Below are positions 7,397-50,533 of a stretch of DNA of 51,633 nt, one piece after another; position 1 is the stretch's first letter; each line of letters opens with the position of its first letter. The position numbers and the translations under genes are program-made. The notes under the pieces are model-generated. The model worked only from the letters and a program-made list of their open reading frames with translations. It was not told the DNA's origin and did not search any database. Source of the stretch: Clytia hemisphaerica (Eukaryota); NCBI RefSeq assembly GCF_902728285.1, contig NW_027104315.1, positions 354,032-405,664 of the forward strand. Direction: 5' to 3'.

Positions 7397-7688
7397 GTAA
7401 GGCGATTCTCTAAAATCATGCAGTTCTGTTGGTAAATTTTCATAGGTATAAGATGAGATGGAATTTTTATAAGATACTTTAATAATTGGTCATTTTAAGT
7501 AATAAAAATGACGCGTTCTTTAGAAAAAGTAACAAAATTGTTTTATTACTGATTAACAACCGACCAAATCAAATAAGAGCTTGTAAAAACTCCATCTCGG
7601 CCCAAAGTTATAACAGGATATTCTACCTTAGGTAAATTTTGAAGGCTTCTTCAGACCTTATAGTTCGCAGTTGTGACGATCTCTAAAT

Positions 7689-8430
7689 CAGGGATATGTT
7701 ATAGCGGAGCTGGATGAAGGACGAGAATTCCTTAGCGGATTGCTTCTTTGTCTTTTCTATTGTAAACTGTTGATAATAGAAATCCATCTCTGTCCCCTTG
7801 AGTGTTCTGTTTTTTTAAGAAAAATGAAGCAGACAAAGTATTCATGCAGTACGTTTGCACATATTTTGCTATGATGTTCCCACTTTTCATTAAAATAATA
7901 TTTGTAGAAGATACCCCAAAAGCTTCCTTGTAAATGAAATCTATTTTTATCAGCGTGTGTTATGAATTTGAGAAGATTCATGATTTCTCTTTAAAAATTT
8001 CGGATGTAAATATTTTGAAAATATGTTTCAATTTTTTGAAATTTTTTCCATAATAAGACCTACCGACTTGCTATCTGAAAATATCAGTTAGAAAGTGAGG
8101 CACCCCGCGGTGTAGCGCGGTATTTCAAATGAAAAAGTACTATTTATAATCTTAGAGAAGAAACTTCTTATAACTTTACCAATGAAAACAATGTTTTTCA
8201 TTTTTTTAAATTGTCATTCACCAATGTTTTACAGACCCTCTTGATAACTAAAAGTTTTTAATCGTGAACGATAAATGCAGAAGCAGAATCATTGGCTAAG
8301 AGGAAATCCAAATTTCACGAGTTTGTAATTAAAAAAGTTAAATTTCATATCAAATTTTAATGTTAGGGACAGAGATAGAGCAAGGCTTTTTTAAATGTGC
8401 GTTATCCAGCTCCGCTATAAGATATCCCTG
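7689..8430. mobile_element. ~740-bp non-autonomous DNA transposon with ~28-bp TIRs (CAGGGATATGTTATAGCGGAGCTGGATG), copy A
   Basis: Terminal inverted repeats; near-identical copy at 11152-11887; short flanking direct repeats (CTAAAT). Confidence 0.85.
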
Positions 8431-9179
8431 TCTAAATATAGCACGTGAAAAGTCGAGCCACTTGCTAGAACTTTGATGACGGAATTCACACCAAAGATTA
8501 TATCAAATCATTCTCTGTTAAGGCCAGTCTCGACTTAATACACCATCAGGTCTTCTCATGAATTATTTTGAGTTCAACGACCTGCCCTACTTTAAAACCA
8601 TTACAAGGTAATTTGATGTCTTAAGTATTCAAGTGTTTTTCTTATGAATAACATAGAGGGCAAATTCTTATGTGCTCCTCTGGGAATCGATTACCATTGC
8701 AGTATTTTGAAAACGAGGTAAACATTGCTCGTGACGTAATTTATGAAAAGGTCTTTTGACTCAATTCATATGTTGTTTCCTTTATCGAGGGTAATTGTTT
8801 CACTTACACTTTTGCCATTTTTACCCTCGTTCCCACTTCTACCACCATCAAGTTGAAACATTTTAAAAAAGTGTGAAAAGTGGCTTCTTCAGCTAACTTG
8901 CATCAGGCAATGTGTAAAAACGAGACCACGCTCCTTCTAATACGGGTCCAAAATAGTGGTAAAATTCCGACGGCAACAGAGCCTTACTCTGGTCTTTATA
9001 TTACATTTTCAATCGTTACAACATAAATTATGCCTTCTGCTATCTTTAAATAAATTTATTCTCTAGTTGCATAGCGACGGATAATTAATGCAAAATTAAA
9101 ATCAAATTTATGCATTCGAAAGCTGCCATTTTGTTTTCCACTTTTCACACAAACTGCGCGAAACAAAACAAATTTGTTT

Positions 9180-9750: not shown

Positions 9751-10298
9751 CACATTTTGAAGAAACAAATAGGAATCTGATGGCACTTGTGGCACAAATG
9801 TGAAAAATATCAACGAAACATTTTCCCTCATCGAGGAAGAAGTTTGATTAGATCACTATAATTTTCCGAATAATTGTGTTCCCCGCTGTTTAATTTTCAA
9901 AAAGTATATACCCTACACCCAACGGTCTCATCATGAGACCCCCCTCCTGTTTATCTATTTTTGAAATTATTTTCAGCTACCATAAGCTGGACTGCTCTAA
10001 AAAACCTGGTTTTAGTTTATAACCACCTTATTTTAGGGTTTTTGGTGGTACAATTCCGGGCCTCTTTTTATTCAAACACCCAGCTTATTGGATTCTAGAC
10101 TAATAAACTCGTAACCTATATTTCTATGAAAATTTTCTTAATATTATCACGCTTCTAAAGTTAGTCATCTTCTTTCCGTTCTGGTTCATTATCCGTTTCC
10201 AGCCAGCATAGAACGTTATTTTAACGTTCATGTAACGTTATATGAACGTTAGGGCCGTCAGATAAACGTTGTTATGACGTTCGAAATTTCTATCACAG

Positions 10299-10508
10299 GC
10301 ACTACGTTACCAATTTGGTTAAATGGTTCACATCCAACGGAGGTTAATGTCTCAACGTCGGTCCCGGTGTGTGTTGTATATCCTGGGAATTGCTGTGCAC
10401 ATAAATACAACATTGATATCAAACGATGTCAAGATGAGGTACAAGGAGAGGATTATTTTGTTTACAATCTACCTGCTACTCCAGGATGTCCAATGTCTTA
10501 TTGCATCG
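10299..10508 (+). CDS. Exon, D8C domain C-terminal half (TTLPIWLNGSHPTEVNVSTSVPVCVVYPGNCCAHKYNIDIKRCQDEVQGEDYFVYNLPATPGCPMSYCIG)
   Basis: Matches uromodulin 'PMWLNGTHP…CC…YYVYNLTAPPECHLAYC'; the split glycine codon G|GC joins exons 4 and 5 exactly; donor G|gtaagc. Confidence 0.85.
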
Positions 10509-10517
10509 GTAAGCTTT

Positions 10518-10615
10518 CCCAGCTGGCACACAACATTGTTTCAACGTTTATTTAACGTTCACAACGTCCATATAAAGTTAGATGAACGTTAAAACAACGT
10601 TGTGTGCCAGCTGGG
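10518..10615. mobile_element. ~100-bp palindromic AACGTT-rich MITE ('CCCAGCTGGCACACAACGTTG…CAACGTTGTGTGCCAGCTGGG'), copy 1, starting ~10 bp after exon-5 donor
   Basis: Near-perfect internal palindrome; same consensus recurs at 25555-25652, 27758-27855, 31491-31587, 36062-36156, 37206-37292, 39175-39266, 40815-40911; degenerate or partial copies at ~10195-10290, ~26740-26930, 27443-27500. Confidence 0.85.
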
Positions 10616-10624
10616 TTTTACATC

Positions 10625-10880
10625 TACAGCCGTAGCATGACGAAGGGTAGAGAATCGAACTATGATGCACAAGGTTGGGGGTTTGACCCCTCTAGCCAGG
10701 TTTCTTTAAAGATTCCCAAAATGGTACTTGATACTTCTCTGCTTGGTGTTTAGCAACTAGAGAGATAGGTCAAGGACCAGTGAATGATTTCCAGGGAAAA
10801 ATGTAGCGCACTCCCCTGCCTTCGGGTAGATAGTTATAGAAAAGGGAGCTTTCGGGTATCTTTCGTCTGCGGGTCACAAA
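10625..10880 (+). mobile_element. tRNA-derived SINE copy (continues at 11118-~11135 after the nested MITE)
   Basis: tRNA-like head with GGTTCGA B-box; conserved core '…AAATGGTACTTGATGCCTCTCTGCTTGATG.TTAGCAACTA.AGAGA…CCTTCGGGTAGA.AGCTATA.GAAAAGGGAGCCTTTGGG…'; other copies at 24296-24575, ~30115-30355, ~47815-48040, fragment 1880-1940. Confidence 0.7.
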
Positions 10881-11117
10881 CATAGATTTATGAAGCCCGA
10901 AGGGCTAGATGGGGTACTTTTGCTGAAAAAATTGCCGTTGTCAGGTAGGAAATCCTACCTAGGTCACGTGACATTACAATAGAATTTCAGCGCTCGGCCA
11001 ATTAGAAGCTTCGCGGGTTTTTGAGAACAATAGCAACAATATTTTTCCGATATTCACTTTTTTTTCCTGCGATTGCTTAAAGCACGACATCTAGCCCTTC
11101 GGGCTTTATAAATCTAT
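10881..11117. mobile_element. 237-bp MITE with ~30-bp TIRs (CATAGATTTATGAAGCCCGAAGGGCTAGATG), inserted into a SINE copy; 8-bp TSD GTCACAAA
   Basis: Perfect TSD at 10873-80 and 11118-25; TIR family shared with elements at 75-352, 5670-5957, ~19440-19650 (partial) and 51285-51575. Confidence 0.85.
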
Positions 11118-11151
11118 GGTCACAAACTTTTTTACTTTACACAGGGATATG

Positions 11152-11887
11152 TTATAGCGGAGCTGGATGAAGGACGAGAATTCCTTAGCGGATTGCTTCT
11201 TTGTCTTTTCTATTGTAAACTGTTGATAATAGAAATCCATCTCTGTCCCCTTGAGTGTTCTGTTTTTTTAAGAAAAATGAAGCAGACAAAGTATTCATGC
11301 AGTACGTTTGCACATATTTTGCTATGATGTTCCCACTTTTCATCAAAATAATATTTGTAGAAGATACCCCAAAAGCTTCCTTGTAAATGAAATCTATTTT
11401 TATCAGCGTGTGTTATGAATTTGAGAAGATTTCATGATTTCTCTTTAAAAATTTCGGATGTAAATATTTTGACAAATATTGTTTCAATTGACTTGAAATT
11501 TTTTCCATAATCAGACATACCGACTTGCTATCTGAAAATATCAGTTAGAAAGTGAGGCACCCCGCGGTGTAGCGCGGTATTTCAAATGAAAAAGTACTAT
11601 TTATAATCTTAGAGAAGAAACTTCTTATAACTTTACCAATGAAAACAATGTTTTTCATTTTTTTAAATTGTCATTCACCAATGTTTTACAGACCCTCTTG
11701 ATAATTAAAAGTTTTTAATCGTGAACGATAAATGCAGAAGCAGAATCATTGGCTAAGAGGAAATCCAAATTTCACGAGTTTGTAATTAAAAAAGTTAAAT
11801 TTCATATCAAATTTTAATGTTAGCGACAGAGATAGAGCAAGGCTTTTTTAAATGTGCGTTATCCAGCTCCGCTATAAGATATCCCTG
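11152..11887. mobile_element. ~740-bp TIR element, copy B (near-identical to 7689-8430)
   Basis: Near-identity over the full length implies recent transposition. Confidence 0.85.
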
Positions 11888-12391
11888 ATTACAGTAACAA
11901 TCCCTTTGTTGATATGTAATCCGATCTCCTTTAGCCTTATGTGAAAATTTCTTAGATATGCCCTATAGCATCGGTGATCTTAATTTTTGATCATCATAAT
12001 AACAACTGTGGGGGGAGAGAATGAATTAGACTACGGTGTATAAGAATGGGTTTCCATCTAAAGGGAGAGAATCCATTAACAATGCTTTTGTTGATAGATG
12101 TGAAGCCACTTTTAGTTCCTCTGTAAAAATTCCACAAAGATTGATTGACTTATCACTTAGGTTTCCACTGGTCAGATTTCATATCCTATTTTATGTCGCC
12201 ATCACTTTTGACGTAAAAATCAGGTTTTCAGTCAATTTCTTTGAACTAAGCTTAGTCTAAAAGTTATATCGTAATGTAATTCTTTGCTTCTTTCTATGTT
12301 TTTTTATGTGTAATATTTTGATATTTTATATATCGAGACAGGGTGGAACCACCTCCAAAAAAAGAAAAAAATTATCCTGTGTTTTTTTTAG

Positions 12392-24295: not shown

Positions 24296-24575
24296 AAGGT
24301 CCAACAAAACGTAAGTGACCGTAGCATGAAGGTAGAGCATCCAGCTACGGTAGGCAAGGTTGTGGGTTCGATCCCCAGCCGGGTCATACCAAAGATTCCC
24401 GAAATGGTACTTGATGCCTCTCTGCTTGATGCTTAGCAACTAAAGAGACAGATCAAGGGTAAGTGGAGAAATCCAGGGAAAGGAGTGGCGCCCTCGCCTA
24501 CCTTCGGGTAGACAGCTATACGAAAAGGGAGCCTTTGGGTCACCCTCGACTGCGGTTGTAAACTTACTTTCAACA
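24296..24575 (+). mobile_element. tRNA-derived SINE copy (most complete; head ends '…GGTTCGATCCCCAGCCGGGTCATACCA')
   Basis: As above. Confidence 0.7.
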
Positions 24576-25328
24576 AAACTTGGTCGAGTTAAGGAGAAGA
24601 CATTCGAAATACAAATGACTCTACTGTACTAGATTTCAAAATAATCCTTGAAATAATCATTGGCATATCGCAACGAGACAAAAACTTCTCCCGCAGAAGG
24701 CTTCTGTTCTCCTGTGCAGTGACTTTCAAAACAAAGCACACTTTTTTATATGATCATACCAAATAACTTGCTCCATTTAGTTTTAAACCCGGTTTTAGGG
24801 ATTTGTCGGCATGATTCTAATTTTTATCAGCGATCCAAAAAATATCTGCAATCTGATTAGTTAAAAAGAATACAACATATCTTTTTTTTTACATGTACAA
24901 AATATAAATTGACAAAAAGATGTTCTTACATTTTAGCGGTAGAAGCAATCTAACGTCACTTTGCTACAAAAATGCCCTGCGCTTTTTTCCGACACAAAAA
25001 GTGCATTTTTTCGGTCACCGATAAACCAGTTATCAGACATTTTTTGCTTGTACAATATGGAAATATATTTCTCATATTGTACTCGTAGCTGTCCGATAAC
25101 TATTTCATATCGAAACTTCATGTTCTTTCCAACGGTAACTACAAAGGATCAAAAAGACTTCCGAAACAGAGACTGAGTTAGGAAGTGACCTGACAGAGCC
25201 TTTAGAACTCTAATTATTTAAAACAATCAAACATTTCTATACATTTTATTTTTCAGGAGCTGAACACTGTGGTAAAAGGAGGCGAAGACGTCGGGATGTT
25301 GAAACACAGAAAACCTTAATCTTGCCAG

Positions 25329-27414: not shown

Positions 27415-27442
27415 GTGAAAAGCACAGATTTCTGTTTATCTA

Positions 27443-27855
27443 ATTTTCACAGGTCCATATAAAATTAGATAAACGTTAAAAAACGTCGTGTGCCAGCAGG
27501 GAAGAGGGACTTCTGACCATAGATTTATAAAGTCAAAAAGGCTAGATGTTCTACTTTAAGCTCTTCCAAACAAACAAAAAAGAAAGTGAATATCGCAAAA
27601 AATATTGCTGCTATTGTTTTCAAAAGACCCGCGAAGCTTCTTATTGGTCAAGCACTGAAATTCTATTGTGATGCCACGCGACCTCGGCACACTTTTCAGC
27701 CAAAACATGACATCTACCTAGAACTTTGGACTTGAATCTATGGTCAGAAGTCCCTCTTCCCTGCTGGCACACGACGTTTTTTCAACGTTTATCTAACTTT
27801 ATATTGATCTGTGAACATTAGATAAACGTTGAAACAACATTGCGCGCCAGTTGGG
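27443..27855. mobile_element. Composite: half MITE (27443-27500), a second TIR element with 27-bp TIRs GGGAAGAGGGACTTCTGACCATAGATT (27500-27762), then a full AACGTT MITE (27758-27855)
   Basis: Nested inverted repeats seen directly in the sequence. Confidence 0.7.
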
Positions 27856-30114: not shown

Positions 30115-30355
30115 TTGTGGGTCTTTCTCAGGAGACCCCAGCCAGCTACGATGACAGAGGTCGTGGGTTCAATCGCTTATCAATTCATATCAAAGTTTCA
30201 AAAATGTTCCTTGATAGTTCTCAATTTAATAAGAGAAATATTAAGGATAAGTGAGGAAATCCAGAAAAAAAATGACGCACTCCCCCTGCCTTTAGGTGGA
30301 TAGCTGGAAAGAGGAGCCTTTGGGCCACCTCCGGCTGCGTCCGCAAGACTTTCTT
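30115..30355 (+). mobile_element. SINE copy (divergent head, conserved core and tail)
   Basis: Core and tail align with 24296-24575. Confidence 0.6.
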
Positions 30356-30790
30356 ACTACTTGGTTATCTTATCACACCCCCTTGTCACAGACAGGATTT
30401 CTTCATCCAGTTGGTATAAGAATAACGAAATGAAACTCGATGGGGATTGATTTTCTCATATTGTTTTAGCTGGGGATGTCAATTCTTTTGTTTTCAAGTC
30501 AGAAAATTCAATGAGAATGGGGAAAATATCATAATATTTTGCAGTGAGGATTGGTTTATTTGATTATTTTCTGTGGGGACGAAAGTTGGAGTATTATTTT
30601 CCATCGGGAACGATATTTTGGCCAATTTTTCCAGTGGGAAGGGGTCCCAGTGGGTTTATGAGAAGGAGGTGCCTTATCTTGTTATGATGATTCTTCTTGG
30701 TTGTTATAGTTCACTACTGACCATTCTATCGATGAAGAATTCAACGGAGAAGCAACAATTCAAAGCAGTGAATTATTAAGTTTCGCCGAG

Positions 30791-32159: not shown

Positions 32160-32290
32160 TTACATGGCATGGGTTGACCCAGGCGGAGGTTCATTCACTT
32201 ACCAGGTGAACCGCTGCGAGTGGGAATCGAACCTCAGTCGCCTGTGTAGCAACCAAGGTCAATGACCACTATACCACAGCACCTTCCTAA
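32160..32290 (-). pseudogene. tRNA-like segment (minus strand '…GGTATAGTGGTCATTGACCTTGG…GAGGTTCGATTCCCACTCGCAGC…'), probably a SINE head or tRNA pseudogene
   Basis: GGTTCGATTCC T-loop-like box and D-loop-like AGTGGT; no clean cloverleaf could be folded by eye. Confidence 0.3.
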
Positions 32291-42979: not shown

Positions 42980-43211
42980 ATGAAGTATATTGTTTTGCTT
43001 GTCTTCGTTCTGATTGGCCAATCACAGGCCAGCTCGTCAATTTCGTTACCAGAAACGAAAACATGGCGTCAATGTTTAGAAGAATTGAAATTGCAAGAAA
43101 GCATCAAAAGTTACGGTATCGAACATTTTTCAAAGATGGCAATGGATATACATTTCTTCAGATTATTGTATTCAAAAGCTAATTACACATTTTTTATACC
43201 AACGGACAAAG
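42980..43211 (+). CDS. FAS1-repeat protein exon 1: signal peptide (MKYIVLLVFVLIGQSQA) plus start of FAS1 domain 1 (…ANYTFFIPTDKG)
   Basis: ATG followed by a hydrophobic signal sequence; FAS1 H1 box 'T.F.PT+.AF'-like; donor AAAG|gtattc. Confidence 0.75.
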
Positions 43212-43502
43212 GTATTCGACGATTTTCTTTTCTCAGTGAATTTGAAACTTGATCTAAACACCGGTCGCTTTATACTTGTTGCAGCAGCAGATGCACCTCC
43301 TATTGTTAGAAATGCAATTATTTTTTATTTAGAATTATTGTGAAAAGTTATAGGCCTTAGAAGGTAACTCGTTGGGGTGAAGAAACAGCGTAAAACAGAC
43401 TTTTTCTATTCCGACAAGACAGTGTACCATTAATACAAGGAATTTCTTTACTCTATTTACTGTAATGTTACTCTTCGAACCTGTCTTTTTTTGCTTTTAA
43501 AG

Positions 43503-43736
43503 GTTTTAACATGAGCGAAACATATCTCACCAATCAAACATATTTCAAAAAGCGTCGATTCATGCAATACCATATTTATCCTGGAATTCACACCGCGCGT
43601 TCAGTCCGCGATGGTCGCGCGATCGTATCATTTGACGGAGATAAAGCGTATGGAAACAGGTTATATGATCGGTACACAAAGAAAATTCGATTTTGGATTC
43701 AAGGATCAGAGGTTTTACAGCACAACTTGAAATTAG
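43503..43736 (+). CDS. FAS1-repeat protein exon 2 (…YHIYPGIHTARSVRDGRAIVSFDGDKAY…)
   Basis: Acceptor ttttaaag|GT, donor TTAG|gtataa; phase 1 in and out. Confidence 0.65.
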
Positions 43737-44143
43737 GTATAATTTGATTAGATAGATAGAGTCAATATTTTATCTCGATAGCCCAGTAATGGAAGACCTT
43801 TATAGCTATTCGATTTTTTTCACGGGTTTCACAGCCACCCGGCTATCTGAGGACTGAACAGAAATTGTTGAAAGGAATTCGAACTGTGAGCCCGTGGTTA
43901 GAGGTGTGAACGCCTCTCAACTCTCCTTAGAATTTATCACTTAGATAGAGCAAAATGCTCATGTTTTCCTTTATTTCTATTTCTACGTTTATCTCTGCTA
44001 TATATATATATCTGAACTTCCAAGCTAGACTTCCTCTCTATGACTTAGGCGAGCTTATACAAGTTAATCAAGGTGGGAAAAAATCGGATTTAATCTCTGT
44101 TAATAACAGCCTAGCACTATACTATACCGTTTTTCTCCTTCAG

Positions 44144-44376
44144 GCAACAGTATAGTGCATATCATCAATCATGCCCTTACTCCGCCCACAAGTGATTTGT
44201 TTCAATACCTCGAATCAACACGTGGACATTCAATTTTCCTGGATATTTTGGACAGATACCAAGTCTATTTCCAGTTCCCTTTTGGAGGAACAATCTTTGC
44301 TCCATACGATGATGCTTTTGCTAACATACCAACGACTTATAAAGATAAAATTTTCAAAAATGGTCTCAACACAAGA
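44144..44376 (+). CDS. FAS1-repeat protein exon 3: H2 box of domain 1 (NSIVHIINHALTPP) plus start of domain 2 (GGTIFAPYDDAFANIP)
   Basis: FAS1 motifs 'NG+IH.ID.VL.P' and 'T+FAP.D.AF'; acceptor ttctccttcag|GC, donor AGA|gtaagt. Confidence 0.8.
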
Positions 44377-47300
44377 GTAAGTACTTTGCGGGTGTTTGCT
44401 GCAGAGAATCAAATTTATATATAAAACAAGAGCCGCAAAGATGCGGATAAATATTTCCTTTACAAATGTTAAAATAATAATCGATGTCCTCAAAAGATTT
44501 CAAAGTGCTTTAAATCTCAGATAACATCGTCCCTAAAAATTTCAAAATTCCATTTATGTAATTGCCAGTATTTACAGGATTATTCATAAGATAACTGTAG
44601 GTTCAAAGCTACGGATCACGAAATATATCCAAGCTGAACCCGACTGAGAACAACAATGCAGTAATCAAATTGGCTGGAACTTTAATTTTCGTTAGGCGGA
44701 CTTTAAATGGATTTTAGTATTATACTAGCGGTCACCCGGCGTCGCACCGCCAAGTAGAGTGTTGTTGAACACATCAAAAGACCTGATTATATAATTATTA
44801 TTTTAAGCGCTGATTTCCAGAAATATTATTTAGCCAAAAAGGGCAAACATTTAAAATGAAAGAATGACAAAAAGGAGAATATTTCACAGTAAGAAAACCA
44901 AAGAAAATTTTATATATTTTTAAAATGAGCTGAAATATTTTGTATTATACTTTCATATATAAAATATTGTAAAAAATGTAAAAATTAACTTTTGGAGTTT
45001 TTTGAAATAATGTACGTGCCAAAAAGTAAAAATCTTTCAAAACAGGGAAACAATTTCATAAATTCCGACAGAATGCAAAAAAAAAAAAATCTCATTTTTA
45101 TATATATATACTGGGAAACATTTCATAATCTGAAAGAATATCGATAGGAAAAAAATTCCCCTAACAGAAGCCATTTTATGATTTCCAAAAGCATGCTACA
45201 AAAAATAGTCACAGCAAAAGCAAAAAATGTCACATACTTGGAAACAATCATAATTTCCAAAAAAATCTCAAAAAATAAAATAAATTGTCATGCCAGGAAA
45301 TCACTTGAGTTTTCTTCATTTTTTAAATGCATGTGGAAGAAAATGTCGTGTTCACAACAAAAGTTTTCCACGTTTTGAATGCACGAGTAAGAAAATCTCC
45401 AAATTTATCACAAAAGTTTCCACGTTTTAAATGTACATACCGTCAACTGCTTTAACTTGGGACGATTGGTCGAAACATGGGACTGTTTGATATCTGGCCT
45501 GTATTTTCACTCACTTGTTAAATCTCTTTGACAACAAATTTGTTTTGATAACTTAACCAAGTTTATCAATCATACTTTCTTTCATAACATTTCACAATAA
45601 CTTGATTGGAGAATTAGAGAACGCCCGCCGCCTAACCGCCTATCGCCCGATGGGATTAACAAATAACAAGTGTGTAACTTGCCGTGCGAGTGACGTCAAA
45701 CGCTCCATCATTTTGTCACTAATTTTTTCATCTTCGATCTAGACACTCGTGTGTATTCCACTACGAATTTTTTTCATATTTTGATATAAAAGCCTACGCA
45801 GTGCAGTGTGAAAGAGAAATTGTGTTTTCTTTTAATACGCCGTTCATTAACTCAAATTAAATGACTTTTGACTTTGGAGGTTCGGTGAAATGGTGGCCAA
45901 ATTGCCGTCCCATGTTTTAGTCAGATAGTCCCAAGTTGGGGAGCAGTTGACGGTAAGAAAATCTCCAAGTTCATGACAAAAGTTTCCACGTTTAAAACGC
46001 ACGTGGCAAAAGATCTCTAACAGTCAGGCACATCCTGGCAAATGAACGGGGTATTTTTCACTTGCGACCATTGGCAAATGAACGGGGTCGAAAACGAAAG
46101 TAACGTAATAGCGCCGAATACCCAGTTTAATTGAACCGGGTTGGAAATATTTTGCTTCATTTCAAGGAACTGCATAGATGAATTTTTTTTTCCATGGGTC
46201 AATTTTGTCTTCGAAGATTGAAGAAACTTTTAATGAAAAAATAAAGTTCCCAGTTTTCTTCCTTTTTTCCCTTTTTCAGTTTGAAGTTCATTTTTATTCA
46301 TTTTCACGCTTTTAGCCTGAGACGTCCTATCTCATTTACACTGGGTGACGAATACCCCATGCAAATGCTCACCCCGTTCATTTGCCAGGATGTGCCTGAC
46401 TGTCTAAATTCACAACTAAAGTTTTCCATGTTTTAAATGCACGCGGTTCCGGATCCGGTTATCAGCTTTAAAATTTGAAATTTATAACCGCAACGAGTTT
46501 TCACTATACTGTCACTAACCAGCAGTTAATTCATTGTTGTAGATAAAAACACCAAGGGAAATTCAATCATTAACCAGTCAATTTTGCTCCATGTTTAAAT
46601 TTTTAGCTAAAATCAGTTCATCAACCATTCCCATTGCATTGTTGCATTGTCGGCATTGCATTCGTTGGGTGCAAACTTTTTTCACATTACAAGTATGTAA
46701 TTTTTCAGGTATAACATGGTCAGATTTATTCACAGTCACTTGCCTTCGTATGATTTATGTAAATATACAATCAAAATTGAAGTTAGTTTGTTGTGAAAGT
46801 TGATAAAATGTCCTGTTTTTCCAAGACCAAGACTGCAAGAGATTGTATCTCTCATTCCAGCTCATTCCAAACCAACAGAATGTAAACGAAACATCAAATC
46901 CAGAAAGGAATACCAAGAAAAGTTCACTATCGACCATTCCTTGTGACAATCGTACAAAAATCATGATCCAATTCAACTCATTAAAGCATAAAAACCAAGC
47001 AAAGAAAAGTAGCGAAAGAGCAAAAGTTGTTGTAGTCTATTTCCTGCCATCTTTGTTTTGGCAGTTAGAAACAAAGCAGTATGGTCCGATCAACAATACG
47101 CATCTGAAACGGCAGATATTTACAGATATTTATCACAGACGTTTCTTGAAAACATGACGTCTTCCGCCTCGAAAAAAGAACATCCTACTGTTTTTACCGC
47201 CGGAGCTTGATTTAAAAAGAGACTCATGTACAAACTCACGAAATTGACCAAAACCGGCGTTAGACTTGAAGGAGAAGAAGGAGAAAAATTACCGTTTTAA

Positions 47301-47814
47301 CAAATATTTCCTATATAGATAGGAAATATTTAAAAAGTAGTATAGCAAAAATATCGACTCTAATATATTCGAGAAAGTTGTAAACTTTTGATCAAAACTT
47401 TTTATCTAATCAGTATTTGATTGATACAAGGTTGTTACGTGATAAAAACTCGAAAAGGTGATTATAGTTGAATCAATAATCAAAATAGTTTGCTTTCTTA
47501 TCGATCGTGAATAGCTGTCTTAACAATTTCGAAAATGGAGATTTGACCATCACTTCATCACTTTTGGCTGAACTTTGTGTTATATTTACTTTTGATGACG
47601 CTGAGTCCAGTGAAGTAGACTAGGAGCATTTGACTTATTTTCAAATGAAAACATTCTTCATTCTTTTATTACCTGGCAAAACAACGAAAATCTGGCGGGA
47701 TATTTTACAGTCCGCCTAAGCAAAAACATATCACCATATACTACCGAGCCACTTAGTCACGCCATCTAGTCTATAAAAAAGCTTTAAGTGAACCATGGGC
47801 TGGCTCATCCTGAG

Positions 47815-48040
47815 ATACAGCCTTAAGGGGTTAAGAACCATAGGTAGAGCATTCGAATACGGTGTGCAAGCAGACGGGTCATACCAAAGATTTCAAACTG
47901 GTAATTAATGCCTCTCTTAATGTTCAACAATGGAGAGAATAATCAAGGGTAAGTGGAGCGACTAAGGACATTTACCTTTCGAAAGATAGCTATAGAAAAA
48001 GGAGCCTTTGTCTACCTCTGATTGCGATCCCAGACTTATT
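47815..48040 (+). mobile_element. SINE copy ending ~50 bp upstream of FAS1 exon-4 acceptor
   Basis: Core and tail align with the other copies. Confidence 0.65.
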
Positions 48041-48090
48041 TACTTAATACCGTAGTGCGTTATGTATTTAAAATGATTTTTTCCTTTCAG

Positions 48091-48316
48091 ACCTTCCTTC
48101 GCGACCATATTATTCGTCACCCAATGTGTCGTGGACGACTTTACCATAAAAGCGGTTGGTCACGTGTTTATAATGATAATGGTCAAACGTTGGAACTTTA
48201 CCGAGATAAAAAATCAAAAGATTATTCGTTTGTTGAGAGCGCGGGTGTTATGTCTGTGAAGCAAGTTAGAGAAGGATGGGTGTATGCTGTTAGTGAGGTT
48301 TTACTACCTAATATCG
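48091..48316 (+). CDS. FAS1-repeat protein exon 4 (TFLRDHIIRHPMCRGRLYHKSGW…EGWVYAVSEVLLPNI)
   Basis: Acceptor ttttttcctttcag|ACC, donor ATCG|gtaaga; end-of-FAS1 motif 'V.+V..VLLP'. Confidence 0.7.
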
Positions 48317-49091
48317 GTAAGAATAATTGCAAATAGCACAAATAAAACATATCGAGCACAATCAAGTTTCCCACTTGTATTTGATTTGATTTTGGGAGTA
48401 GGCTTTGTAACATATTTAAACTTTTAACTTGGCTCAACTTTATAACTTTTATGGTAATCTCATAAAAACATGCATTCTGCGTTTTATTTCCCATCTGCAT
48501 CCTGTATTTGATTCAATTTTAAGTTTGAGGAATTTCAGCCCTAAAGGAGCTGGAAGACAGACTTTGTAACCAATTTAAACTTTTAACTTGGCTCACGAAC
48601 TTTGTAATTTTTGTGGTAATCTGCATTTACCATTTACCGTTCTGCGCATGTCACGCTTCGCTGTAGCGTAGACAGAGGTGAAGGCGAGAAGATTTAAGCG
48701 ACACAGTGATTATCTTTTTATACCACGAATAGATAAAGCTTTGTCATAAATATCTGCTCTCCTACGCAGATTGTTCTTCACCTCTGTCTAACTGAAAAAT
48801 GGCACTCAGGGTATCCACACTAGTAGCGTAGACAGGGGTGAAGGAACATTTGCTTAGGCATGGAAGAAGATTTAACGACACAGTAATTATGTTTTATGCC
48901 ACGAATAGGTAAGTGCTTTTTCGTAAAAATCTGCTCTCCTACGCAGATCTTTTTTCACCCCTGACTCTAAAGGGATGTGGCGAAATTTGATTACTTTTAG
49001 AGAGAATACATACCAGTAATCAGTGGTGTGGTTTACTTTTACGGCTATCATATGCCACCCGTTCTTTAAATTTGCTTTCTTATTTTCATAG

Positions 49092-49411
49092 ATTCTAAAC
49101 TAATGGACATACTTAAAGATCTCAAAGCAACCAAATTTATTCAATATGTTCAAACGGCCGGATATCTACCATTATTGAACAGTCTGGTAGAAGTTTATAC
49201 TGTTTTCGCCCCTAACAACAAAGCGTTTGATGACCTTGACAACGCTACCAAAACGAGACTAAAAGAAGATCCCGGATACCTGAAATTACTTGTTGAATAT
49301 CATTTGGTCAGAGGACGATATTCTACTGAGACAATGACCAAAAGGTTATTTTACAGAACTGTGGCAAAAAACGGAACGATTAACTATCGCCTTTTTGCAA
49401 GTAGAGCTATG
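49092..49411 (+). CDS. FAS1-repeat protein exon 5: FAS1 domain 3 (…YTVFAPNNKAFDDLDNATKTRLKEDPGYLKLLVEYHLVRGRY…)
   Basis: Acceptor tattttcatag|AT, donor ATG|gtaagc; strong FAS1 H1/YH motifs. Confidence 0.8.
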
Positions 49412-49699
49412 GTAAGCAACAAATATTCAGTTACAAGTCAGGAATTTTTAACCTCTCCTAAGCAAAAAAGGCGAAGCCTTAAACGTATTGCACTGCTTTC
49501 TCTGAATGATGGATTAAATCTAGCATCTTTCTTTGCTTTTGTATTACATTTTCAAATCTTCTTGCGGTAAATATTACTTCCAATCAAGCGTCTGTATAAA
49601 ATCTACACACGGGCTGGAACTTATGTAGGGGATAACATTCCTCGACTGTTGTCTTTGAAGAAATCATCGATATGCCGGGGGTTTGTCGTCTATTTTATA

Positions 49700-49862
49700 T
49701 TCGATTCATGATATTCATGACGTAATATTTTTTCCGGAAAGACCCCGGTTTTTACCAGTAGTGGCAAATTTTATACAACTTTTGTCTAGTTTAAATTTAC
49801 CACCACTGGCTAAAACCGGGGTATTTCCGTAGAAAACATTACGTCATGAATATCATGAATTG
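49700..49862. mobile_element. 163-bp hairpin MITE (TIR ATTCATGATATTCATGACGTAAT.TTTT.CGGAAAGACCCCGGTTTT) ending 37 bp before FAS1 exon-6 acceptor
   Basis: Near-perfect palindrome; half-copy at 28128-28215. Confidence 0.75.
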
Positions 49863-49900
49863 CATTCTCATGATTAATTAGAATGTTCTCATTTTACTAG

Positions 49901-50533
49901 GGAAGCATTCAAAAATCACGGATAATTAATAACAATCAAATGGCTTTAAACGGCATTTGTCACCTCATCAACAAAGTTCTCATACCCCCTGAAATAACAA
50001 CCTATGACGTCATCAATGATATTCGAAGTTTGAGACTGATATCAAAGATGTATGACAAATTCAGTGAAGAGTTTAGACAAGTTTTGGAAAATGAAGATAA
50101 AGCCTATACATTGTTCTTACCGACAAATCAAGCTGTGAAAGCCTTTTTCTACCAACAGAACCCGGTCAATGAAACCGATGCTATTCAAAAGTTGGAAATT
50201 CTAATCCGGAATCAACATTATGTCACTCAACCTTTGATTATATTAGAAGACGACAATCAGCCAGCTATTCCAATAAAATCGGGTAATTTCCCGATTTTAG
50301 GGTCCAGTTCCGATCGGGAAACACGGATTTTGACATTGAGGAAACGAGAAAAACTAGAGGGATACTTGACACCGTATTTCATTGAGGAATTCAAGTCCTC
50401 ATTGGTTCAATTAAATCACGTGACCAGAAATGGAGTAATCCAATTGGTTGATTCAGTGTTCGATGGGAAATCGAAAGTACAAGTTACAAAAGAGATGTGG
50501 AAATCTTTACAAAAACGTTGGAAAGATAATTGA
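49901..50533 (+). CDS. FAS1-repeat protein exon 6 (terminal): H2 box (NGICHLINKVLIPP) plus FAS1 domain 4 (YTLFLPTNQAVKAF…NGVIQLVDSVF), stop TGA at 50531-33
   Basis: Acceptor cattttactag|GG lies just 3' of an in-frame stop; long open frame; AATAAA ~260 bp downstream (~50791). Confidence 0.75.
   Translation, partial: GSIQKSRIINNNQMALNGICHLINKVLIPPEITTYDVINDIRSLRLISKMYDKFSEEFRQVLENEDKAYTLFLPTNQAVKAFFYQQNPVNETDAIQKLEILIRNQHYVTQPLIILEDDNQPAIPIKSGNFPILGSSSDRETRILTLRKREKLEGYLTPYFIEEFKSSLVQLNHVTRNGVIQLVDSVFDGKSKVQVTKEMWKSLQKRWKDN

Follow-up and report, generated by a model that had tools for sequence, protein, structure and literature searches.

Which of the mobile elements crowded into one intron of a uromodulin-like animal gene lie inside one another, and how much of the order of their arrival can be read from the arrangement? 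The intron occupies positions 10509–12391 (1,883 bp, with GT at 10509–10510 and AG at 12390–12391) of the 51,633-nt stretch of DNA that we analysed and refer to as the window. A preliminary description had presented the locus as a three-level nest, consisting of a tRNA-derived SINE, a MITE inside it and a 740-bp TIR element at the SINE tail. We identified four elements, the fourth being a 98-bp palindromic MITE missing from that description; together they account for 1,369 of the intron's 1,883 bases (~73%), and the other 504 bp occur nowhere else in the window.

The reading frame is unbroken across the intron. A uromodulin-type D8C domain has its C-terminal part in the exon on the 5′ side (~10277–10508); the exon that follows is small. 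The borders of the D8C exon are confirmed by comparison with a related species, from which a 528-bp ENA contig shows 82% identity over the exon and loses similarity precisely at the two splice sites. The host gene extends over ~3950–41400 and also encodes C-type lectin, VWD, EGF and ZP-N domains; it is followed by a fasciclin-domain gene at ~43000–50530. A GC content of ~35%, short exons and canonical splice sites make the DNA of the window look animal-like. A collection of 5.8 billion proteins contained only two homologues of the D8C exons, both short ENA metagenome fragments, which suggests that searchable data contain little from the source animal.

The core of the cluster is a SINE copy, c1, interrupted near its 3′ end by a non-autonomous TIR element that we call MITE238 (10881–11118, no strand assigned). 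The 5′ part of c1 (10623–10880, plus strand) comprises a decayed tRNA-like head, a conserved core and the body through the octamer GTCACAAA, while its 3′ tail, CTTTTTTAC, lies at 11127–11135 on the same strand and has alignable counterparts in other copies. The octamer stands at 10873–10880 and again at 11119–11126, in direct orientation and directly abutting MITE238 on both sides. These are its only two occurrences in the window, where composition predicts about one per strand, and this 8-mer would turn up by chance at a given position with a probability of ~2e-5. The perfect 8-bp duplication reported earlier is thus confirmed, as is the MITE that it flanks, except that the element had been given as 237 bp (10881–11117) and is one base longer, 238 bp. 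Its 31-bp TIRs, CATAGATTTATGAAGCCCGAAGGGCTAGATG and CATAGATTTATAAAGCCCGAAGGGCTAGATG, match at 30 of 31 positions and can be extended to 40 nt at 90%; the outer ends read CATAGATTTAT...CTAGATG, and there is no ORF of note in the element. MITE238 combines features by which MITEs are recognized: TIRs, a flanking target-site duplication, small size, no coding capacity and multiple copies.

Deletion of MITE238 together with one GTCACAAA restores a SINE of ~270 bp. Its alignment to c2, c3 and c4, uninterrupted copies from elsewhere in the window, crosses the junction without a break. Across the site, the reconstructed c1 reads CTGCGG-GTCACAAA-CTTTTTTAC, c2 reads CTGC-GGTTGTAAA-CTTAC, c3 reads CTGCGTCCGCAAGA-CTTTCTTAC and c4 reads TTGCGATCCCAGA-CTTATTTAC, the tail beyond the site in c2 being CTTACTTT. 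Each of the three uninterrupted copies carries the target site once (GTTGTAAA, CCGCAAGA and TCCCAGA). Because the site is single-copy in every uninterrupted SINE, the GTCACAAA duplication was created by the insertion of MITE238, which establishes that the SINE is older than the MITE. The preliminary description had claimed a clean empty-site reconstruction and had named a site that is not single-copy in intact SINEs as the observation that would speak against it; with the site present once in three of three copies, the reconstruction stands.

An nhmmer search with the reconstructed c1 (10881–11126 deleted) recovered four further copies in the window, bringing the family to five. The best of them, c2 (24311–24570, plus strand; 76% identity to c1, E=5e-39), served as the uninterrupted reference and is enclosed by a perfect 9-bp duplication, CAACAAAAC, at 24302–24310 and 24571–24579. 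Weaker matches were obtained for c3 (~30138–30358) and c4 (~47840–48046), and a partial one for 1822–1938, all on the plus strand. For c1, the candidate target-site duplication is the hexamer TTTACA, found on the plus strand at 10617–10622 on the 5′ side and at 11136–11141 on the 3′ side; its position fits the SINE ends set by c2, and it is short and of low complexity. The tail of the family is ACTTNTTTAC(TT), without poly(A), and the window yielded no partner LINE. Searches with the SINE core against bacterial and archaeal genomes and viral contigs gave no matches. All five copies lie on the plus strand, in sense orientation relative to the host genes, a bias that does not reach significance (two-sided p ~0.06).

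The earlier assignment of the SINE to tRNA-derived elements is borne out at the level of the family, through c2, and not by the decayed c1 alone. In c2, an exact B box, GGTTCGATCCC, is present at 24365, and positions 24315–24389 on the minus strand give a full-length Rfam match to RF04354 (E=0.021), a model that, from its consensus, we take to be the antisense of a plastid tRNA. When c2 was aligned with yeast tRNA-Phe, the match covered the D loop through to the T arm, and none of 1000 shuffled sequences reached the alignment score. The head of c1 retains a B box, GGTTTGACCCC, with one mismatch at 10680–10690, and by itself yielded no significant tRNA alignment. ARAGORN reported no tRNA in the whole window at default settings; relaxed thresholds did recover the c2 head along with 26–84 other 'tRNAs' in the window, and we rejected them as evidence for this lack of specificity. 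The Rfam tRNA model did not match the SINE heads even at E values up to 10, and nothing in the window passed the Rfam gathering thresholds. We therefore regard, with moderate confidence, the SINE family as probably tRNA-related. It resembles tRNA-derived animal SINEs in being ~260–270 bp long, non-coding and present in several diverged copies, in its tRNA-like B-box head, conserved core and short tail other than poly(A), and in flanking duplications of 6–9 bp, whereas its head is degenerate and goes unscored by the Rfam tRNA model. The best tRNA-like sequence of the window lies elsewhere, at 32211–32281 on the minus strand, where ARAGORN called a Ser-GCT tRNA at the 90% threshold and an exact B box, GGTTCGATTCC, is present; it is single-copy in the window and could be either a tRNA pseudogene or part of a further SINE family, of which it would be the head.

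MITE238 also belongs to a real family, as judged from a second copy in the window and from relatives with a conserved interior in six metagenome contigs. The second copy (27518–27742, minus strand, 79% identity) has no target-site duplication, and its flanks are inverted rather than direct. It sits inside a large inverted repeat (27434–27827) made of 48 perfectly matching nt (27478–27525 and 27735–27782) and a further 50 nt at 90%, which takes in 8 nt of the element's own TIR, a 16-nt spacer and the ends of the 98-bp MITE. Conservation between the arms of this repeat is far higher than between the TIRs of MITE238 at the same place, which suggests that 27434–27827 recently underwent inverted duplication or conversion.

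Scanning JGI metagenome contigs with the MITE238 TIR returned six contigs (L001–L006, from datasets Ga0314674, Ga0314683 and Ga0314701) whose relatives of the element are 82–91% identical. The contigs contain long uninterrupted ORFs, with the relative outside the coding region; by eye, we identified a CDK-like kinase ORF ~120 nt upstream of the element in L006 and a Rab-like GTPase ORF 26 nt upstream of it in L004. To judge from these sequences, the contigs look like intronless animal-type mRNAs in which the MITE occupies an untranslated region. The locus thereby introduces one small element family that recurs in untranslated regions of what appear to be unrelated mRNAs. None of the six encodes a transposase. 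L001 and L004 share a common flank and contain different extents of the element. The only complete JGI copy (L004, 472–692) lacks a duplication, with CATCCGCC and AGCTAGAA as its flanks, and a target-site duplication is thus present in one of three complete copies, the one at 10881–11118. The interior of MITE238 (10960–11045, and the stretches of L002, L004 and L005 that align with it) is better conserved than the sub-terminal parts and carries a palindromic GTCACGTGAC (E-box core, CACGTG) and a CCAAT motif; it may represent a putative promoter-like module spread by the element.

The third member of the cluster is a non-autonomous TIR element of 746 bp (copy B, 11142–11887, plus strand) with termini CAGGGATATGTTATAGCGGAGCTGGAT and its inverted equivalent; the 27-bp TIRs match at 26 of 27 positions, and the ends begin with CAGGGAT. 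It had been described as a 740-bp element abutting the SINE tail. The element and its second copy are real, its length is 746 bp, and it starts 6 nt past the last SINE-homologous base, directly after the TTTACA of 11136–11141. Copy A (7689–8430, plus strand) lies in the preceding intron, 3.4 kb away, in the same orientation and with 98.7% identity, and is bounded by a perfect 7-bp duplication, TCTAAAT, at 7682–7688 and 8431–8437. An 8-bp duplication for copy A was considered and rejected, since the sequence gives a perfect 7-bp repeat and a length of 8 needs a 1-bp deletion at the junction. Copy B is flanked by TTTACA and ATTACA, an imperfect duplication where, given the 98.7% identity to copy A, a clean insertion of very recent date would have been expected to leave a perfect one. 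Its outer 13-nt flanks are inverted-complementary at 9 of 13 positions. The open frames of 71–75 aa in this element had no Pfam match, and its TIR had no matches among viral contigs.

The structure is accordingly a two-level nest, with the MITE in the SINE, and the 746-bp element is certainly not inside the MITE. It is probably also outside the SINE: it begins beyond TTTACA, the best repeat available to the SINE, and is therefore better described as juxtaposed than nested, with either order of the SINE and the 746-bp element fitting the structure. The 'three-level' label was thus overstated, and so was the full chronology drawn from it, of which the structure upholds the step from SINE to MITE and leaves the place of the 746-bp element to divergence. 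Kimura two-parameter (K2P) distances between copies, which bound the time of insertion and do not date it, amount to 0.014 for the 746-bp pair, 0.09–0.26 for MITE238 and 0.29–0.54 for the SINE. These values suggest the order SINE, MITE238, 746-bp element, and the insertion of the last would probably be the most recent event. As in the retrotransposon nests between maize genes, an interrupted element must predate the one that interrupts it; unlike those nests, the present cluster contains a single true nesting, and the other two elements are juxtaposed.

Should the 746-bp element nevertheless be nested in the 3′ tail of the SINE, structure alone would place the SINE before it. The tail is a variable T-rich run (ACTTNTTTACTT...) that in other copies reaches 2–5 nt beyond 11135, and the right flank of the element, ATTACAG, resembles the 5′ flank of the SINE, ATCTACAG, so that the duplication of the SINE could alternatively be completed on the far side of the 746-bp element. 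That alternative needs an indel, however, whereas the exact TTTACA at 10617–10622 and 11136–11141 is the best duplication and leaves the element outside. Each arrangement hangs on 5–7 low-complexity bases; we regard true nesting as unlikely and keep to juxtaposition. Far less probable is a different origin of the inner nest, in which the SINE master copy already carried the 238-bp element and the composite was retroposed as a unit, so that the GTCACAAA duplication predates the locus. SINE families sometimes propagate with captured inserts, and there is only a single locus to judge by; yet the other full-length SINE copies of the window (c2, c3 and c4) all lack the insert, SINE sequence adjoins none of the six JGI loci of MITE238, and a hairpin-forming insert of 238 bp would be expected to hinder Pol III transcription and reverse transcription. 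That the repeats arose by chance, with no mobile elements involved, is scarcely conceivable. An AT-rich composition is all that speaks for it, and it is refuted by the probability of the 8-mer at a fixed position, by TIRs matching at 30 of 31 and 26 of 27 positions and by independent copies of every element elsewhere. Insertion of MITE238 into a resident SINE, with the 746-bp element beside it, remains the preferred reading.

To which superfamily would the transposase that moved the 238-bp element have belonged? The preliminary description had named hAT or P-like enzymes from the 8-bp duplication, and fairly so, since hobo and the P element both make duplications of 8 bp (PMC3276498). The P element prefers palindromic targets of the GT...AC type, GTCCGGAC, and its relative 1360 makes 7-bp duplications (PMC3276498), while Hermes and hobo prefer nTnnnnAn (PMC10368747, PMC3276498). 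GTCACAAA fits the latter pattern, and among the flanking 8 bases at eight independent element ends, T occupies position 2 in 6 of 8 and A position 7 in 6 of 8 (p ~0.017 each, in a small sample and with the P targets GTCCGGAC satisfying the same nTnnnnAn). Duplication length and target pattern being common to hAT and P, the two superfamilies can be separated only by a transposase, and we lean towards hAT. No transposase was found in the window, where the only five ORFs of at least 120 aa all lie outside the cluster and none has the length that a transposase would need.

Further comparison with the two superfamilies cuts both ways. As a short, TIR-bounded, non-coding element with many copies, MITE238 resembles hAT-type MITEs, and its 8-bp duplication is that of Ac/Ds, hobo and Hermes. 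It differs from hAT elements in that its terminus, CATAG, departs from the hAT terminal pattern YARNG at the third base, in a 31-bp TIR that is longer than usual for hAT, and in the absence of a duplication from two of three complete copies; copy A of the 746-bp element, moreover, has a duplication of 7 bp and not 8. The ends of the 746-bp element begin with CAGGGAT, and the terminus of Ac begins with CAGGGATGAAA; by analogy, the CAGGG terminus would point to hAT, for that element only. Membership of MITE238 in the P superfamily, with its THAP-type transposase, would agree with the P-type duplication and target described above and with the 7-bp duplication of copy A, which recalls 1360/Hoppel, although it is duplication length that would carry the assignment. 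The TIR of the Drosophila P element is likewise 31 bp long and begins with CAT, as in MITE238. Given that the T2/A7 flank pattern fits hAT equally well and that the terminus of the 746-bp element would, for that element, point to hAT, we consider a P-type origin of MITE238 somewhat unlikely.

With a probability of about 0.88, we interpret the locus as four non-coding mobile elements clustered in one intron through the following history. SINEs are copied by the target-primed reverse transcription of LINEs, which leaves a short duplication, and we infer that the ~270-bp tRNA-related SINE was retroposed into the intron in this way, probably duplicating TTTACA. The 238-bp non-autonomous cut-and-paste element then integrated into the 3′ region of the SINE with a transposase supplied from elsewhere; staggered cuts 8 bp apart, once repaired, duplicated GTCACAAA, a step demonstrated by the reconstructed empty site. 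Independently, and probably last as far as divergence indicates, the 746-bp element with its CAGGG termini would have landed just outside the 3′ end of the SINE, copy B perhaps arising by a short-range hop, with copy A in the same orientation 3.4 kb upstream, in the adjacent intron. The 98-bp palindromic MITE sits against the 5′ side of the SINE and may have arrived at any point in this order.

The insertion of the MITE into the SINE is genuine and cleanly resolved, and such pile-ups are routine in animal introns; nothing indicates a host function for the four elements, which appear as passengers of the intron. They belong to families of known kinds that may be uncatalogued, and a full-text literature search for the four element sequences returned nothing. 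The locus orders one pair of events only and has no bearing on open questions in transposon biology. Its main value is for annotation: for four repeat families of an animal that seems little sampled so far, it supplies precise termini, the lengths of duplications and an empty site that has been verified, and these families could seed a repeat library for the source genome. Two same-orientation copies 98.7% identical and 3.4 kb apart make recent short-range hops possible; current or very recent activity of the 746-bp element, with short hops within the gene, and an effect of the palindromic MITEs on processing of the host transcript are speculative and rather doubtful propositions. Neither the activity nor the effect, if true, would amount to a new principle.

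The palindromic MITE itself, MITE100, lies at 10518–10615 (no strand assigned) and consists of two arms, 10518–10559 and 10574–10615, that pair over 42 nt at 88%. The element starts 9 nt inside the intron, and a single nucleotide separates its end from the candidate 5′ duplication of the SINE. At least ten copies occur in the window; ten of them gave no consistent duplication length, with TTT on both sides a possibility. The D8C exon (~10277–10508) is bracketed by the family, with a partial copy (10197–10279) reaching up to the acceptor and the full copy on the other side. Such pairing-prone flanks could have a putative influence on splicing or back-splicing of the D8C exon, including its skipping. 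The full copy also gives sub-threshold Rfam matches to MITE-type microRNA precursor families, the best at 48 bits against a gathering threshold of 74.
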